From contig CAZTNI010000001.1 of the NCBI GenBank assembly GCA_964615415.1, forward strand, positions 25,290 through 89,289: a DNA stretch of 64,000 nt, given 5' to 3'. The stretch is from an uncultured Candidatus Saccharibacteria bacterium. Its GTDB lineage: Bacteria > Patescibacteriota > Minisyncoccia > Phycocordibacterales > SBAW01. Shown one piece after another: positions 3,316-51,513 of the stretch; the stretch's first letter is position 1, and each line of letters starts with the position of its first letter. Position numbers and translations under genes: made by a program. The notes beneath the pieces are model-generated. The model saw only the letters and a program-made list of their open reading frames with translations. It searched no databases and was not told the DNA's origin.

Positions 3316-5559
3316 ATGGTGTGCATGGCGCGCAAGAGTAGTAAACGAGAAAGTCGGTTTAATCCCCTTGCCTCTCTCCCTACCGACACAAAAAAATCCG
3401 TTATTGTTGTGCTCTTCATTATTGTTGGCATGTTCTTAACCCTCGCCGCGTTTGGATACGCTGGCGTTGTTGGTACTGATGCGTACCAGTTCTTTGTGTA
3501 TCTATTAGGGGTTGGTTACTTCCTCCTCCCTCTCCTCTTTTTCCTTCTTGCAGGTAACATGTTCCGAGCCGAGGATTCTGCCTCAGGCCTTTCCCCTTTC
3601 AAAATTATCGCGAGCGCTGTGTTTATTTTTGCCGGCTTGGGCTTTGTAACTATTGTGAGTGGAGACGGTGGCCTCGTAGGGTCTTCTATTGCTGACCCGT
3701 TGGTTGAATTGTTCGACATGTACGTCGCCATGATCGCTTTAGGAGGAGTATCTCTTATTTCACTCCTTATACTGCTTGAGGGGCGCATCTCACTAGAGCC
3801 GTTTGCATTTTTCAAACACCTCATCACCTTCCCTGCGCAACTATATAGAAAGCTCTTTAAGCGCTCTGACGCAGGAGAAGATACGGAACTACTTGTAAAC
3901 GGTGCGCCTATAGAAGACGAAGAGGAGGGGGCGCAAGACGAGGAGCCTCAAACGTACACCAAACAGGCTCCCGAACCTGCCAAGGCTCAAAAAGCTGCCG
4001 AGGCGCAACCAGCACAGACTGGCGGCGGACTCTTCTCTACTCTTGAAGGGTTGCTTGGAGAATACACACCCCCGCCACTTTCTTTGCTTGAGAGAGACAA
4101 GGGCCGCCCAGGCGTGGGAGACATAAAAGCAAACGCAAATATCATTAAGCGCACGCTCGCTAACTTCGGTATTGTTGTAGAGCTCGACGAGATTTCTATA
4201 GGACCGTCAGTTACCCGCTACGCGATTAAACCCGCAGAAGGAGTTCGCCTTTCAAAGATTGTTGCTCTGCAACAAAACTTAGCGCTTGCGCTTGCAGCAA
4301 AGGGCGGTATCCGTATCGAAGCTCCAATTCCAGGCAAATCGCTCGTCGGTATTGAAGTGCCAAACACCGCAAAAGTGACTGTAGGCCTTGGTACCTTGCT
4401 CGACTCGAAAGATTTTTCTGATTCACCGAAACCACTTCTTGTGGCGCTTGGGCGCGATATTACCGGCAACTCAATCTTTTCAAATATCGCGAAGATGCCG
4501 CACGCGCTTGTTGCAGGTGCAACAGGCTCAGGCAAGTCGGTAACGATCCACGCCATAATTAACTCGCTCCTGTTCCGCTGCGGTCCACAACAGCTCCGCT
4601 TCCTCATGATCGACCCAAAGCGTGTTGAATTGACGCTCTACAACGCAATCCCACACCAACTCACTCCTGTAATTACTGATCCTAAGAAAGCTATTGCTGC
4701 TTTGCGCTGGGCCGGCAAGGAAATGGATCGTCGCTACAATATCTTGCAAGAAAATCGCGTTCGCGACATTGGGTCATATCACGAAAACATTCTTGCACCC
4801 GCGCTTGAAAAACTCCGCAAGAAAGGCGCACCAGATGAAGGTGAAACTGTGCCGGAAGCAATGCCATACATTGTCATTATTATCGATGAGTTGGCGGATA
4901 TTATGCAGACCTTCCCTCGCGAACTTGAAGCAGCGATCGTGCGCCTTGCACAGATGAGCCGTGCGGTCGGTATACATCTTGTCCTTTCAACACAGCGTCC
5001 GTCTGTAAATGTTATTACCGGTCTTATTAAAGCCAACGTTCCAACACGCGTTGCGCTGCAAGTAGCTTCACAAATAGACTCCCGCACTATCCTTGACCAG
5101 GGCGGCGCAGAAAGCCTGCTCGGCGCGGGCGACATGCTCTACCTTTCTACCGACATGAATAAACCGACGCGCTTGCAAAGCGCATTCATTAGCGAAAACG
5201 AGGTTAAAAAAGTTGTCGACTTTATTACAGAAAACAACGAAGCGGAGTTGCCTATCGATATCGGCGCGACACAAAGCAGCTCAGGTGGTAGCAGTGGTGG
5301 CGGATTCGATAGTGAAGGTGGTGACGATGTTGATGATGATATGTATGAAGCAGCGCGTGCTGCGGTGATTGAAGCTGGCAAAGCTTCTACGTCGTATATC
5401 CAGCGCAAACTCCGTGTAGGATACGCTCGCGCTGCGCGCCTTATGGATATTCTTGAGGAACGAGGTGTAATTGGTCCTGCAGACGGCGCAAAACCACGTG
5501 AGGTGCTCGACAAAGGCGGCACGGCTCCTGCCGAAGCAGGCCAATCCGGCGAACTATGA
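3316..5559 (+). CDS. ftsK: DNA translocase FtsK/SpoIIIE
   Basis: N-terminal TM helices. Walker A GATGSGKSV and Walker B IVIIIDELAD. C-terminal winged-helix gamma domain SYIQRKLRVGYARAARLMDILEERGVIGP. Confidence 0.9.
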   Translation: MVCMARKSSKRESRFNPLASLPTDTKKSVIVVLFIIVGMFLTLAAFGYAGVVGTDAYQFFVYLLGVGYFLLPLLFFLLAGNMFRAEDSASGLSPFKIIASAVFIFAGLGFVTIVSGDGGLVGSSIADPLVELFDMYVAMIALGGVSLISLLILLEGRISLEPFAFFKHLITFPAQLYRKLFKRSDAGEDTELLVNGAPIEDEEEGAQDEEPQTYTKQAPEPAKAQKAAEAQPAQTGGGLFSTLEGLLGEYTPPPLSLLERDKGRPGVGDIKANANIIKRTLANFGIVVELDEISIGPSVTRYAIKPAEGVRLSKIVALQQNLALALAAKGGIRIEAPIPGKSLVGIEVPNTAKVTVGLGTLLDSKDFSDSPKPLLVALGRDITGNSIFSNIAKMPHALVAGATGSGKSVTIHAIINSLLFRCGPQQLRFLMIDPKRVELTLYNAIPHQLTPVITDPKKAIAALRWAGKEMDRRYNILQENRVRDIGSYHENILAPALEKLRKKGAPDEGETVPEAMPYIVIIIDELADIMQTFPRELEAAIVRLAQMSRAVGIHLVLSTQRPSVNVITGLIKANVPTRVALQVASQIDSRTILDQGGAESLLGAGDMLYLSTDMNKPTRLQSAFISENEVKKVVDFITENNEAELPIDIGATQSSSGGSSGGGFDSEGGDDVDDDMYEAARAAVIEAGKASTSYIQRKLRVGYARAARLMDILEERGVIGPADGAKPREVLDKGGTAPAEAGQSGEL

Positions 5560-5933
5560 GAACCACGCCCACGCTGCGACGCGCACTCTTTGGTATAGGC
5601 AGTGTTTTCCTTGTTGTTGGTATCGTCGGGTACGGTTTCTTTGAAGCGCGGAGACTTGTGCAAGGTCCGATAATCACTATACTTGCCCCAGTGGACGGAA
5701 GCGCCACTTCTTCCCCCACCGTCACTATTTCAGGTATCGCAGAAAACGTTTCGTTCTTAAGCATCAACGATCGCGCAATTTTAACTGACGAGCAGGGCCA
5801 TTTTTTAGAACACATTGCCCTGCCTCAAGGAGTGTCCGTGCTTTCTGTCGCAGCAAAAGATCGGTTTGGTCGCAGTACTTCACGTCTGATCCACATTACT
5901 ATCGTAACCTACTGTCCATTGGGCTCGGCATAA
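5556..5933 (+). CDS. hypothetical membrane-anchored protein
   Basis: 125-aa ORF overlapping the ftsK stop by 4 nt (ATGA). Single N-terminal TM ([16 protein letters not shown]). Confidence 0.45.
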
Positions 5934-5952
5934 ACAGCTCACCTACACATAT

Positions 5953-7035
5953 ATGGCAAAATTTGGCAAAGATAAGGAAAAGAAAGCTCCTCGCAGCGAA
6001 CGAGACAACAGCTCAATTGAAGCAGCTATCCGCGAGATCCAGACCAAGTTCGGTGACGAAGCGATTATGAAGCTAGGTGACGCTCCAAAGGTGGACGTCG
6101 ATGTTATTCCTTCAGGCTCTATTGGTCTCGACTGGGCACTTGGCATTGGTGGCTACCCTCGCGGCCGCATTATCGAAATTTTTGGTCCAGAATCATCAGG
6201 CAAGACTACCCTCACCCTGCACGCCATCGCTGAGGCTCAGAAAAAAGGCGGCGTATGCGCATTTATCGACGCAGAACATGCGCTCGACCCAGACTATGCA
6301 CAAAAAATTGGCGTAAACATCAACAACCTCCTTGTGTCACAGCCAGATACAGGCGAACAAGCACTCGAGATCGTTGAGTCGCTCGTACGCTCCGGCAAAC
6401 TCGACATTATTGTTGTCGACTCCGTAGCTGCTCTTACACCGAAAGACGAGATTGAGGGCGAAATGGGCCAAAGCCATGTAGGTAAACAGGCTCGCCTCAT
6501 GTCTCAAGCACTTCGCAAGTTGACCGGTATCGTCTCGCGCTCAAAGACGGTAGTTATTTTCATCAACCAGATCCGCATGCAGATCGGCGTTATGTTTGGC
6601 AACCCAGAAACAACACCGGGCGGCAAGGCACTGAAGTTCTATACCTCAGTACGCCTTGATATCCGCCGCATTGCACAGATTAAAAAAGGTGAAGAAGTCG
6701 TTGGCGGACGCCACCGCGTAAAGGTTGTTAAAAACAAAGTTGCGGCTCCCTTCCGCACCACTGAATTTGACCTCATGTACAACGAGGGTATCTCAACCGA
6801 AGGCGAACTGCTTGCACTTGGCGAACGCCTTGGCGCAATACAGAAAAGCGGCTCTTCGTACAGCTTTGGCGAAGAAAAACTCGGCCGTGGCTACGACGCA
6901 GCACGCACATACCTTCGAGAAAATAAAAAGGTGTCTAACGACCTCCTGAAAGCAATCAGAAAAGGTCTTGAGGAAAACGCCTCAAGCGGTAGCAACGCGG
7001 GTAGTGGTGAAGGATCGAGCGACTCGGACGAATAG
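5953..7035 (+). CDS. recA: recombinase RecA
   Basis: [39 protein letters not shown] and the downstream RecA core are conserved. Acidic C-terminal tail. Confidence 0.95.
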
Positions 7036-9908: not shown

Positions 9909-10478
9909 TTACCGTAGCGCTTTTTCGGCAGGGAGCGCGTCCCAGACGAAATAGTTATTCTTGTCCTTTTGATGCTCGACATACCCTTCTAGCTTGTACC
10001 ACCGATCAGGGAGATAAACGTCGAACACATACATATGGAACTGGCTGTACACGCCAGGGAACGAGGTCGAAGGAAGTGGCCCCTTAACAAACCCTGGCTG
10101 CGGACTGAGCGGCAGCCGCTCAGTAATTCCCAACTCTTCTCTCAGAGCGCGGTATGCCGCTTCAATCGGATCCTCACCAGGCACCATCTTCTCTCCAACA
10201 CTCATGAGAAGATCTGCTCGGACCTTCTCCCGACCATCTTCGAAAACCTGTTTCTCTTCGCGCAGCCGGAGTGTGCGCCCGTTCTCAACATGGTAAATGT
10301 TGAGGCAGGCTCCCGTCCCGATCTTGAGCAGACGGCCGTGTTCTGACGCCAGCGTCGATTCTCCAGAGTTGAGTTCGGAGAGCAAATGCTCGATCGTCTT
10401 GGCCGAACCAGTTCCCCATAGTTCGAGAGGAACGCTCCGAGCCCGCAGATAGGCCCGGAGTTCTTCGATAGTTTTCAC
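9909..10478 (-). CDS. NUDIX hydrolase
   Basis: NUDIX box GEDPIEAAYRALREELGITE. GTG start preceded by AAAGGAG. Confidence 0.75.
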   Translation of the reverse strand: MKTIEELRAYLRARSVPLELWGTGSAKTIEHLLSELNSGESTLASEHGRLLKIGTGACLNIYHVENGRTLRLREEKQVFEDGREKVRADLLMSVGEKMVPGEDPIEAAYRALREELGITERLPLSPQPGFVKGPLPSTSFPGVYSQFHMYVFDVYLPDRWYKLEGYVEHQKDKNNYFVWDALPAEKALR

Positions 10479-10535
10479 CGGACTCTCCTTTCTCTGTTTC
10501 CAATGATCCTAATTTTAATTATACACCCTTTTTAG

Positions 10536-11327
10536 TTATTTGTCAATAGAAAATACCCGTTGTGAATTAAGGAGAATGTGCGCTGCCACATCGTCTACAG
10601 CAAGATTTTTTATTGCGGCGATTTTAACGACTACATGTTCTACATAGACCGGTTCGTTGCGCTTGCCGCGGTACGGCACCGGTGCTGCGAATGGAGAGTC
10701 AGTTTCTGAAAGAATACGGTCCATAGGCGCAACGCGAATAGACTCGTCATACATGTCGGTGTAGGTAATCGGCCCAGGGAAAGACAGGTAGCAGCCGAGG
10801 TTTAAGTACTGCTGCGCAAGTTCCCCGCTACCGGTAAAGAAATGGATAATAACTGGCACCGAGACTTTTTTCTCGCTTAAAATCTGCAACATGTCGTCGT
10901 GCGCGTTGCGGCAGTGAATGATGAGTGGCTTCCCTACTCGCTCCGCAAGCGCCACCTGCACTTCAAACCGCTCTTTTTGCGCAGCCTTTTCTTCTGCTGT
11001 GCCGCCGCTTCTAAAGTAGTCGAGGCCGCACTCGCCTATTGCTACGACCTTAGGGTCTCTCGCCAAGGCTTCGTACTTTTCGACATCAAAAACTTCTTCT
11101 TTATTGTCATTTGGATGCAGTCCAACTGCGGCCCACAAAAAGTCGTGCTGTTGCGCAAGAGTAAGCCCCGCCTCACTTTCTTTCAGGTCAGTCCCTACAA
11201 CTATTCCTCCCACCCCCTTTTCTTGCATGCGCGTAAACATAGCCTCTCGGTCGGCATCAAACTGCGAAAGCTGCGGATGGCAATGTGCGTCAAAAAATTT
11301 CATACTATCGTTTTGCAAGATCAGCAT
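10536..11327 (-). CDS. tatD: TatD-family metal-dependent hydrolase (DNase)
   Basis: FFDAHCHP, GLHP, AIGECGLDY, PLIIHCR and ETDSPF motifs. Likely start at internal MKFFDAHCH. Confidence 0.85.
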   Translation of the reverse strand: MLILQNDSMKFFDAHCHPQLSQFDADREAMFTRMQEKGVGGIVVGTDLKESEAGLTLAQQHDFLWAAVGLHPNDNKEEVFDVEKYEALARDPKVVAIGECGLDYFRSGGTAEEKAAQKERFEVQVALAERVGKPLIIHCRNAHDDMLQILSEKKVSVPVIIHFFTGSGELAQQYLNLGCYLSFPGPITYTDMYDESIRVAPMDRILSETDSPFAAPVPYRGKRNEPVYVEHVVVKIAAIKNLAVDDVAAHILLNSQRVFSIDK

Positions 11328-50029: not shown

Positions 50030-50536
50030 ATGCGTACTCTTGAATACTTCATTTCCCAACCTATTCCCATGATTCTCATCCTCCACAACATACGCAGCGT
50101 CCATAACGTTGGATCTATATTCCGCACCGCGGACGCTGCGGGTGTGTCTAAAATATTTTTAACTGGCTACACCCCTACCCCCCTCGATCGCTTTAACCTA
50201 CCCCGCAAAGATTTTGCAAAAGTTTCTTTGGGCGCAGAGAAAACTATTCCCTGGGAATATGCAAAACAATTTGCGCCCGTGGCTAAAAAATTAAAGAAAG
50301 AGGACTACACCATTGCAGCTATTGAACAAGATAAAGACTCTACTTCCCTCTTTGACTACAAACCGCAAGATACAGAAAAACTCGCGCTTGTGTTGGGCAA
50401 CGAAGTGCTTGGTATTTCAAAACTGTCACTCAAACTCTGCGACGTTATTCTAGAGATCCCTATGCGAGGCAAAAAAGAATCCCTCAACGTCTCCGTCGCT
50501 GCAGGCATCGCAATGTTTACTGTTTTGCAAAAATAA
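50030..50536 (+). CDS. SpoU/TrmH-family RNA 2'-O-methyltransferase
   Basis: ILHNIRSVHNVGSIFRTADAAG...LVLGNEVLGIS...IPMRGKKESLNVSVAAGIAMF. Confidence 0.8.
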   Translation: MRTLEYFISQPIPMILILHNIRSVHNVGSIFRTADAAGVSKIFLTGYTPTPLDRFNLPRKDFAKVSLGAEKTIPWEYAKQFAPVAKKLKKEDYTIAAIEQDKDSTSLFDYKPQDTEKLALVLGNEVLGISKLSLKLCDVILEIPMRGKKESLNVSVAAGIAMFTVLQK

Positions 50537-50538
50537 AT

Positions 50539-50567
50539 CCCGCCGCGAATCGCGGCGGGTATTTTTA
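50539..50567. terminator. bidirectional rho-independent terminator
   Basis: cccgccgcg aat cgcggcggg, followed by tattttta (plus strand) and preceded by an A-run (minus strand). Confidence 0.7.
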
Positions 50568-50825
50568 TGAGGATGACTTGGGTGCGTCCGGAAAGAAGTG
50601 ATCTCGAACTGAGTGGAAGACACTGCCCGGAAGAGTCTCTTCGAATGTCCTCACCGGCTCCCGAAGAGGCTCGTTCGGATATTCCCCGAGGTTGAGCCGC
50701 GGCGGCTCCTTGCCCGAGAAAAATGTTTCGACAAGAGTTTCAAAGACGCTCGGGGTCTCCTCGAAGGATCTCACCGGTTCTCTCAGACCTCCGTCTTGAG
50801 GATAGATATCAATTCTGTTTTGCAT
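50565..50825 (-). CDS. hypothetical small protein with internal REPVR(S/T)FEET repeat
   Basis: ATG at 50825 with AAGGGAG SD. Two copies of LREPVRxFEETxP. Confidence 0.4.
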   Translation of the reverse strand: MQNRIDIYPQDGGLREPVRSFEETPSVFETLVETFFSGKEPPRLNLGEYPNEPLREPVRTFEETLPGSVFHSVRDHFFPDAPKSSS

Positions 50826-50937
50826 CAAACACTCCCTTGGTTACCACCAAAGGAACTGTACTCCTTAATGAAGAAACCCGCCAGAGGTCTTGCGACTTGG
50901 CGGGTTAAGCAGGTAGGGCTGCTCAGGCCTACGAGAA

Positions 50938-51279
50938 CTAGAGGTTCGGGAGAACTTCGCGGAGGAACTTCCCTCCGTCATTCGAATGCGGCACGTAGGC
51001 ACCGCGCCGAATATATCCGAAGCTGGTGCCCTGCATCACTTCTCGGAACTTCGCGACAACTGTCTGTTCGTCGAGACTGGGCAGGAAGTTTGCATTGAGG
51101 ACGACCCACGGCTTTCTGTCCTCGTCGTATATCGCGATCACGCCGTTATTGTCGTCGCACGTGAATGGCGACCCTCGGCCGACAAGCTGAGGCTTGCCGT
51201 TCACTGTCTCGGTCGTGCCGAGCGCAGAGAAAAAACCGTAGCCAAGAAGAATCTCTGAAAGCTTCTCATTCGTACCCAT
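50938..51279 (-). CDS. hypothetical protein
   Basis: ATG at 51279 with AGGAGA SD. A canonical promoter lies ~50 nt upstream. Confidence 0.45.
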   Translation of the reverse strand: MGTNEKLSEILLGYGFFSALGTTETVNGKPQLVGRGSPFTCDDNNGVIAIYDEDRKPWVVLNANFLPSLDEQTVVAKFREVMQGTSFGYIRRGAYVPHSNDGGKFLREVLPNL

Positions 51280-51337
51280 CTTGCGTCTCCTAAGACATCT
51301 TGCGGGTAGGCAGAGGCCAATCCTCATACCTAGTACA

Positions 51338-51366
51338 ATTATACACCCAAATTACATATTTGTCAA
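51338..51366 (-). promoter_or_regulatory. canonical sigma-70-type promoter (TTGACA, 17-nt spacer, TATAAT)
   Basis: Minus strand reads TTGACAaatatgtaatttgggtgTATAAT. -35 at 51361-51366, -10 at 51338-51343. Confidence 0.6.
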
Positions 51367-51513
51367 GTATATACAAGCCCCGCGAAAAAGCTTCAAAAAT
51401 AGGCACCATTTTGCTATAGTGTGTCAATTGCGCTCCATATCTGCACTTTGCTTGATATGGACGCGCGTTCGGGGCGAAAAGAAAGCGAGAGGCTTTCTTT
51501 TCTTCCTCACTTT

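Follow-up and report, generated by a model that had tools for sequence, protein, structure and literature searches.

We find that a small minus-strand gene in a 64-kb stretch of DNA from an uncultured Candidatus Saccharibacteria bacterium (contig CAZTNI010000001.1; the whole stretch is called the window below) is preceded by a conserved, structured 5' leader RNA in which the Shine-Dalgarno (SD) sequence and the start codon form part of the fold. The region of interest, 50565-51370 on the minus strand, holds two open reading frames (ORFs), ORF1 (113 amino acids, aa; 50938..51279) and ORF2 (86 aa; 50565..50825), which an earlier note on this DNA had described as a promoter-led operon of two small proteins. 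The explanation that best accounts for the data, and one that we hold to be fairly probable, is that the region is an insert with two unrelated small genes, of which ORF1 forms a unit whose leader acts as a translational switch. As judged from sequence comparison, ORF1 is a self-contained promoter-leader-gene-terminator unit that recurs across Patescibacteria. The leader RNA is previously undescribed: the motif, its symmetric core and the gene family behind it are new, and the kind of element, a riboswitch-like or autoregulatory mRNA leader with an occluded SD and AUG, is known.

ORF1 transcription would start from a sigma-70-type promoter, TTGACA-17-TATAAT at 51338..51366 (-), which, as the earlier note had proposed, is of textbook form and matches the consensus at 12/12 positions; two perfect sites of this kind occur in the 64-kb window and none in 100 shuffles. 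The transcription start itself probably lies at about 51331-51330, and an upstream alignment of ORF1 homologs places equivalent promoters at equal distance. AGGAG and ORF1 begin ~50 nucleotides (nt) downstream of the promoter, the AGGAG standing 8 nt upstream of the start codon. The leader occupies 51264..51333 (-), scores 61.8 bits against a covariance model (expectation value, E, 5e-14) and is the sole copy in the window; it measures ~70 nt overall, of which ~45 nt make up the regulatory hairpin. In all loci the element sits between promoter and ATG, with the SD and start codon inside the fold.

Three helices, all on the minus strand, make up this fold. P1, a 5'-terminal hairpin (51330-51309), lies at the predicted 5' end of the transcript; across homologs its sequence is variable, its loop often reads AUUGG, and an A-rich linker follows. 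P3 pairs ACCCG (51307-51303) with UGGGU (51278-51274), the latter composed of the last two bases of AUG and codon 2, and P2 pairs UGUCU (51297-51293) with AGACG (51288-51284) across a UAGG loop, the SD being carried in this loop and the 3' arm of P2. P2 and P3 are separated by a symmetric internal loop, CAAGA (51302-51298) opposite CAAGA (51283-51279), the second strand of which includes the A of AUG. In the consensus, the regulatory hairpin reads 5'-ACCCG-CAAGA-UGCCU-(loop with AAGG)-AGGCG-CAAGA-UGGGU-3', with P2 following UGYCU/AGRCG and P3 joining ACCCG to the UG of AUG plus codon 2 (GGU). Both unpaired strands read C-R-N-G-A, and with a G.U pair flanking each they form a two-fold symmetric GCAAGAU/GCAAGAU 5x5 internal loop; neither strand varies at its C, G and A, which among the metagenome leaders is in part ascertainment, as these were retrieved by a pattern that fixes part of the loop. 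A single-sequence minimum free energy (MFE) fold of the window leader returns the helices of the consensus.

Three other readings of this segment were considered and rejected. An upstream ORF opening at the AUG in GCAAGAUGYCU keeps neither its frame nor its length across homologs when these are compared by eye. A DNA-level operator formed by two CGCAAGATG direct repeats was set aside because the spacing of the repeats follows the length of the P2 loop and their flanks covary as RNA pairs. An extended, 129-aa ORF1 starting at 51327 would begin inside P1, and homologs keep the MG start.

Comparison across homologs reveals that the helices covary. Conservation at the DNA level runs from the promoter through ATG in an upstream alignment of six homologs, and an nhmmer profile places the leader upstream of nearly all ORF1 homologs, including both tandem paralogs of locus L023. 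Among 22 leader sequences that were retrieved through the protein, and so are unbiased for the RNA and free of pattern ascertainment, 90% of cells are paired and 13/17 pairs change on both sides, values reached in 0/500 shuffles, and control alignments in which the partners were slid by 1-3 columns give a pairing of 25-51%. RNAalifold, run independently, returns identical helices. When 50 distinct sequences are taken, pairing extends to 93% of cells, and compensatory changes are found in 14/18 pairs and 117 cells, again with 0/500 shuffles reaching these values, in an alignment that was fitted to the covariance model and thus leans to the model structure. P3 covaries with codon 2 (ATCC/GGAT, ACTC/GAGT, TTCC/GGAA), such that a swap alters the second codon of the protein, and the compensatory changes in P2 include GYCU/AGRC. 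Relative to the nearest relative, L072, the promoter and leader are 82% identical versus 62% (nt) and 45% (aa) for the coding sequence, and the non-coding part is therefore more constrained than the gene that it precedes. The leader is thus, on comparative grounds, a conserved RNA fold of three covarying helices. Searches of Rfam 15 at E<=10 with the leaders of three loci (window, L022, L011) reveal no family; L022 matches RF00043 at 15 bits versus a 55-bit threshold and L011 matches RF01500 at 12 bits versus 40, neither of which is credible. No description of the leader motif was found in the open-access literature.

The association of the leader with its gene is tight. A protein-independent DNA pattern, CCGCNNGATGYY-N1-16-GGAGRCRCNNGATG, scanned over metagenome contigs, yields at least 120 loci, and a covariance model built from 22 sequences and run over the retrieved loci gives 57 matches at E<=1e-5, with scores of 32-85 bits. 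Matches of at least 32 bits precede ORF1-family genes, as borne out in all those checked by downstream translation, and where the pattern matches by chance in other DNA, which is mostly high-GC, the score stays under 25 bits. The leader is restricted to the ORF1 family among the sequences examined, and the genes that it would control thus belong to one family. Two ORF1 homologs, L018 and L026, are without the leader motif; L018 keeps P1 and has, to judge by eye, what may be a simpler hairpin over the SD.

The ORF1 protein belongs, by its sequence profile, to a sizeable, widespread and unnamed family of small Patescibacteria proteins. Neither ORF1 nor ORF2 has a match in Pfam, PADLOC, PHROGs or NCBIfam, apart from two PHROG matches at E>0.1, and the earlier statement that no family could be assigned therefore holds for named families; it does not hold for ORF1 in the wider sense. 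Nine homologs at 41-49% identity share the invariant motifs GFFSALGT, NNG, YDE.G.PW and GAYVPHSNDGG.F, and a profile search over 1.84 billion representatives brings the family to 245 clusters (50% identity) at E<=1e-3, or 151 when the limit is E<=1e-10, the proteins being 90-135 aa long with few exceptions. The 19 genomic loci derive from Patescibacteria metagenome-assembled genomes (Paceibacterota, Parcubacteria and others), bar one contig labelled Gammaproteobacteria that carries a divergent homolog. A Pfam search with ten long family members gives nothing usable and no known domain, a sequence profile search of the PDB has a best E of 0.12, and Foldseek finds no match in BFVD; the predicted structure of the family is confident and without known relatives in the searches made. 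ORF1 is absent from the viral contigs (IMG/VR), phage records and plasmid records searched. Its homologs lie in unrelated contexts, near MgsA, GrpE/DnaK, MreB and RecG-like genes, and clustering of the neighbours of 46 distinct loci reveals no recurrent partner gene, the best being DnaK with 4 loci. A conserved neighbourhood was accordingly rejected, DnaK/GrpE being near in only 3-4/46 loci. One family protein, P0092, is a fused tandem duplicate of the ORF1-family domain. Tandem ORF1 paralogs are also seen in L023 (2928-3787), L035 and L106, every one of them preceded by a leader RNA of its own.

We propose that ORF1 is transcribed strongly from its near-consensus promoter and gated at translation initiation. 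The closed hairpin, which buries the SD, AUG and codon 2, would block 30S binding, and an effector that reads the conserved internal loop would shift the balance between the closed and open forms. That this effector is a small molecule or ion, which would make the leader a new riboswitch-like class, is a tentative assignment to which we give somewhat less than an even chance, and which we hold to be slightly more likely than binding of the ORF1 protein to its own leader. Two hallmarks of riboswitches are found here, a structure supported by covariation and a 5'-untranslated region (5'-UTR) expression platform over the SD and start codon. A ligand is further favoured by the invariant unpaired nucleotides between covarying helices, by the compact size and integrated SD of the element, and by an ORF1 protein that lacks both a basic character and any known RNA-binding fold.

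In these respects the leader resembles the preQ1-I, SAM-II, guanidine-III, NAD+-II/pnuC and THF-II/folE elements: it is a compact 5'-UTR element (~45 nt) with covarying helices around highly conserved unpaired nucleotides, and, like small translational riboswitches in general, it has the SD and start codon as part of the fold. The pnuC and folE motifs too are tied to essentially one gene family, as our leader is (PMC7749635, PMC11317127). Unlike the small riboswitches, the leader has a symmetric 5x5 internal loop at its core rather than a pseudoknot or junction, has no Rfam match, and precedes a gene of no recognised function; any ligand is hypothetical.

Restriction to one protein family also bears on a second possibility, autogenous control, in which the ORF1 protein, probably as a dimer, would bind the GCAAGAU/GCAAGAU loop, stabilise the hairpin that occludes the SD and AUG and exert negative feedback; we consider this possible, if on the unlikely side. 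Ribosomal-protein and threonyl-tRNA synthetase (ThrRS) leaders work in this way, as negative feedback by their own gene product, and the thrS operator is bound by dimeric ThrRS. Like the L20 and S15 leaders and the thrS operator, the ORF1 leader is found upstream of only one protein family, among the sequences examined, and overlaps the SD and AUG; like the thrS operator, it offers a symmetric site that suits a dimer, the internal loop being two-fold pseudo-symmetric. The fused tandem member P0092 and the tandem paralogs that each keep their own leader hint at a dimer, and feedback would be useful behind promoters of consensus strength. Counted on the same side are L018 and L026, which, in lacking the motif, make clear that gene and leader do not always go together. 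Unlike the proteins of known autoregulatory leaders, ORF1 is near-neutral, is not a known ribosomal or translation protein and has no recognisable RNA-binding fold: the family as a whole is not basic (median isoelectric point, pI, 6.3; median net charge -1), and no RNA-binding domain was found in Pfam.

The leader might also be free of any effector, either as an RNA thermometer or as a constitutive determinant of stability and translation rate, and this we regard as improbable. The 5' hairpin would guard the transcript against RNases, and the weak P2 and P3 helices with their non-canonical loop would melt with temperature. P1 does lie at the predicted 5' end, and an SD and AUG held in short, imperfect helices that are broken by a purine-rich loop with non-canonical pairs correspond to the general design of thermometers such as ROSE and fourU; 3-4/46 homologs adjoin grpE/dnaK. 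Unlike in ROSE and fourU, both strands of the loop are strongly conserved, the loop nucleotides remaining invariant on both strands across about 45% protein divergence, for which melting alone has no need, and neither heat-shock nor virulence genes are consistently associated with the leader, the heat-shock neighbourhood being weak and confined to one clade.

A terminator-like hairpin of ORF1, ACCCGCCA..UGGCGGGU followed by UUUCUUCAUU, is predicted by an intergenic fold at 50867..50905 (-); a hairpin and T run stand directly after the stop codon in 34/46 ORF1 homologs, and the hairpin of the window is homologous to the CCCGCC..GGCGGG-T-run hairpins of L003, L012, L017, L019 and L124. A third copy of CGCAAGA in this terminator was considered and set aside as likely chance. 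Between the stop and the terminator lies a candidate H-type pseudoknot, [GUAGG]CCU(GAGCAG)C[CCUAC](CUGCUU), at 50907..50932 (-). The same arrangement directly after the stop is found in 13/47 homologs in a tally made by eye and without statistics (loci including L008, L010, L011, L016, L017, L018, L020, L027, L050, L081, L124 and L148); the tally is manual, as a MAFFT alignment of the 3' pseudoknot misaligned two subgroups. In homologs it takes the form [AAAGAC]CC(GAGCA)A[GTCTTT]AAAC(TGCTC), then a T run. The arms in the window differ and are still complementary (GTAGG/CCTAC, GAGCAG/CTGCTT), and the sequence varies among the window, L008, L018, L027 and L010. Rfam at E<=10 holds no family for this 3' element.

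The terminator falls inside the 112-nt spacer between ORF1 and ORF2, and downstream of it a second hairpin, at 50832..50854 (-), pairs the SD of ORF2 (AAGGGAG, 50838-50832) in both the MFE and the centroid intergenic fold (z = -2.8). Because of the inter-ORF terminator hairpin and the hairpin that buries the ORF2 SD, a simple operon is doubtful; ORF2, lying beyond the ORF1 terminator, would be expressed by terminator read-through at best, and would not be a functional partner of ORF1. The individual elements on which the operon had been proposed are real: both minus-strand ORFs are led by an SD, AGGAG for ORF1 and AAGGGAG for ORF2, and a bidirectional intrinsic terminator with nine G-C pairs and T runs on both strands lies at 50539..50559, serving SpoU (+) and ORF2 (-). 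The length of 87 aa given for ORF2 applies if translation begins at a TTG at 50828; from the ATG at 50825 the protein has 86 aa, and either form ends at 50565. The 161-aa plus-strand ORF that had been judged spurious indeed overlaps two minus-strand frames that are backed by homology and by synonymous patterns.

ORF2 itself encodes an acidic protein (pI 4.8) with a high content of proline and glutamate, most of whose length is taken up by a motif present twice, Y-P-x-(D/E)-x-x-L-R-E-P-V-R-(S/T)-F-E-E-T...F. The internal repeat previously pointed out is thus present, and in DNA it is a 33-nt direct repeat at 120-nt spacing with 76% identity. In the databases, ORF2 matches only its own genome and, in part, P0012 (E 7e-5), a protein of 138 aa (L007 318-734) encoded on a 62%-GC contig beside an SNF2-like gene, with which it shares the motif at 67% identity. 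Codon differences are synonymous over non-synonymous by 16:6 against P0012 and by 6:1 between the two repeats of ORF2, and because of this synonymous excess the frame is under purifying selection and a genuine coding sequence. When P0012 is used as the query, a marginal match (E 2e-3; 34 residues at 57% identity) is obtained in Erythrobacter phage XM05, overlapping the N-terminus of gp154. This protein (L154, PV416404.1 107017-107466) is a 149-aa hypothetical protein among a block of small phage genes; the motif YPxDGGL(R/K)E.VR.F...F..(L/I).E.F heads gp154 and sits inside P0012. P0012 was not found in IMG/VR, nor ORF2 in phage records; ORF2 is possibly of mobile-element origin. A weak direct repeat, CTGTTTTGCA plus an extension, joins the SpoU 3' end to the ORF2 start (50520-50541 / 50815-50836, 17/22 positions); as the mark of a separate ORF2 insertion it was rejected, being within chance expectation.

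Whether ORF1 and ORF2 form a bicistronic functional pair that was acquired together, toxin-antitoxin-like or a small regulatory module as had been suggested, turns on their co-occurrence. The genes adjoin each other on one strand and are flanked by a single promoter and a single strong terminator, both lie inside the 853-nt insert described below, and a promoter scan finds no promoter-like site for ORF2; in this they resemble type II toxin-antitoxin systems, two small adjacent same-strand genes behind one promoter. A tblastn search of ~150 loci with ORF2, in contrast, finds only its own genome and the unrelated locus L007, and ORF2 is absent beside all other ORF1 homologs, which are monocistronic and have terminators of their own. 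Unlike in type II systems, there is no co-conservation, no known toxin or antitoxin domain (no matches in PADLOC, Pfam or NCBIfam), and a 112-nt spacer that bears a homologous terminator and ends in a paired ORF2 SD; ORF2 has for relatives only an unrelated protein from a metagenome and, with weaker similarity, one from a phage. The lack of co-conservation largely refutes the pair, which we now consider very improbable. We instead read ORF2, from its distribution and codon pattern, as a genuinely coding, lineage-specific orphan with no link to the ORF1 family.

Syntenic contigs, found via homologs of the flanking SpoU/TrmH methyltransferase gene, reveal that the two genes lie in a variable segment, and so support the view that the region is an acquired cassette. 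A cassette of 853 nt (50537..51389) is absent from the syntenic site in the closest relatives. In L150, where SpoU is 86% identical, the SpoU stop is followed by 27 nt, tRNA-Lys(UUU) and then a 186-aa gene; in L151 and L152 (SpoU 78%), SpoU is followed by tRNA-Lys, a 204-aa gene and PolA, with nothing between SpoU and the tRNA. The presence/absence comparison called for earlier thus has a clear outcome, with the cassette lacking in these three contigs and other cargo in a fourth, L153 (SpoU 78%), where a different 98-aa minus-strand gene (5528-5953) occupies the SpoU/tRNA-Lys site. Its expression signals are likewise its own: a perfect TTGACA-17-TATAAT promoter, a leader of ~100 nt and a terminator. 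With the relic sequence that lies beside it (see below), this gene suggests that SpoU/tRNA-Lys is a hot spot with exchangeable cargo.

The edges of the segment carry the traces of such an event. On the left, an imperfect direct repeat, GTTTTGCAAAAATAA (50522..50536, +), forms the present SpoU 3' end and stop. On the right lies a relic of the ancestral junction (51390..51442, +), 96% identical to L150 1251-1302, which contains the right repeat GCTTCAAAAATAG (51390-51402; the old SpoU end and stop), the tRNA-Lys promoter (TTCAAA-17-TATAGT in the promoter scan) and a duplicated tRNA 5' start; the relic sequence AAAAGCTTyAwAwATAGG is also found beside the L153 gene. The direct repeat is imperfect, matching at 9/13 positions, and its arrangement is what integration into a gene's 3' end leaves behind. 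The 853-nt segment is therefore best taken as a probable insertion. Like tRNA-adjacent islets, it shows presence and absence at a fixed tRNA-side site, with alternative cargo in a relative, and like integrative elements it has a flanking repeat by which the target gene regains its 3' end, and a displaced relic stays behind. Unlike integrative elements, the insert is only 853 nt long and without integrase or recombinase, and its repeat is short and imperfect. Beyond the relic, at 51443-51511, the window has ~70-80 extra bases relative to L150 between the tRNA-Lys promoter and the tRNA-Lys gene; these consist of two near-perfect hairpins, GCGCTCCATATC..GATATGGACGCGC and GAAAAGAAAGC-gagag-GCTTTCTTTTC, are bounded by the duplicated copy of the tRNA 5' start and are unique in the window.

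ORF1 units are also enriched next to tRNA genes elsewhere, again as in tRNA-adjacent islets. A tRNA gene lies <=300 nt upstream of the leader in 9/48 ORF1 loci versus an expected 1.9, and 0/2000 randomisations reach 9; tRNA-Lys accounts for 4 of the 9. ORF1-family promoters often stand 40-130 nt from a tRNA gene (L001 4829-4900, L014 2812-2896, L016, L081, L104, L127, L148), and in L001 the -35 element is immediately downstream of the tRNA-Gly 3' end.

The composition of the region differs modestly from its surroundings. GC content is 52.9% over 50565-51370 (55.8% in ORF1, 52.7% in ORF2), below the ~55-57% reported before, and with a window mean of 49.3% (sd 2.9%) the region falls near the 90th percentile. 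GC at third codon positions (GC3) of ORF1, 0.69, is an outlier among the 52 long ORFs of the window (mean 0.484, sd 0.06, max 0.609). A crude count, with start codons uncurated, finds SD-like 4-mers upstream of 8/52 long ORFs in the window, which lends crude support to the earlier remark that most native genes do without an SD. The other perfect TTGACA-17-TATAAT promoter in the window lies at 10518-10546 (-), upstream of ORF 9909-10478 (-), and has a spacer closely like that of ORF1 (TTGACAAATA...GGGTGTATAAT). This ORF encodes 189 aa from a GTG start, with SD AAAGGAGAG, a GC content of 54.6%, a GC3 of 0.595 and a terminator-like hairpin, and may be another strongly expressed cassette.

Several points weigh against an inserted ORF1 unit with a ligand-gated leader. 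We infer the transcription start, termination and regulation of ORF1, including the efficiency of its putative terminator, from sequence features, and the function of the ORF1 family gives no pointer to a ligand. A dimeric protein binder would accord with the association with a single family, the symmetric loop, P0092 and the tandem paralogs of L023, L035 and L106 no less well than a small ligand. To these are added the leaning of the 50-sequence alignment to its model and the ascertainment in the loop noted above. SpoU identity to the relatives in the synteny comparison is only 78-86%, and the difference may instead reflect a loss, in those relatives, of the DNA between the direct repeats and not an insertion in the lineage of the window. 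The 853 nt contain only ORF1 and ORF2, neither with a recombinase domain, and thus no enzyme of their own for integration.

Regulation in Patescibacteria is almost unexplored, and no native cis-regulatory RNA specific to these bacteria was found described in the open-access literature. The leader offers a defined aptamer candidate with a testable structure and an invariant symmetric loop, and the ORF1 family, with its 245 clusters, a defined protein for tests of RNA or ligand binding. The probable insertion hot spot at SpoU/tRNA-Lys, with its alternative cargos, adds a natural case of a reduced genome gaining genes. The need for expression-control tools in these organisms has been stated explicitly (PMC11665869), and a compact native translational switch could serve as one for Patescibacteria. 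In the widest reading, which is speculative and rather doubtful as a whole, the leader would be a new riboswitch class or one half of a new RNA-protein autoregulatory pair for a Patescibacteria-specific family of new fold, and the whole unit a minimal, recombinase-less mobile cassette that lands beside tRNA genes. If this reading is true, bacteria with ultra-small genomes would possess a small mobile expression module of a type not described before.

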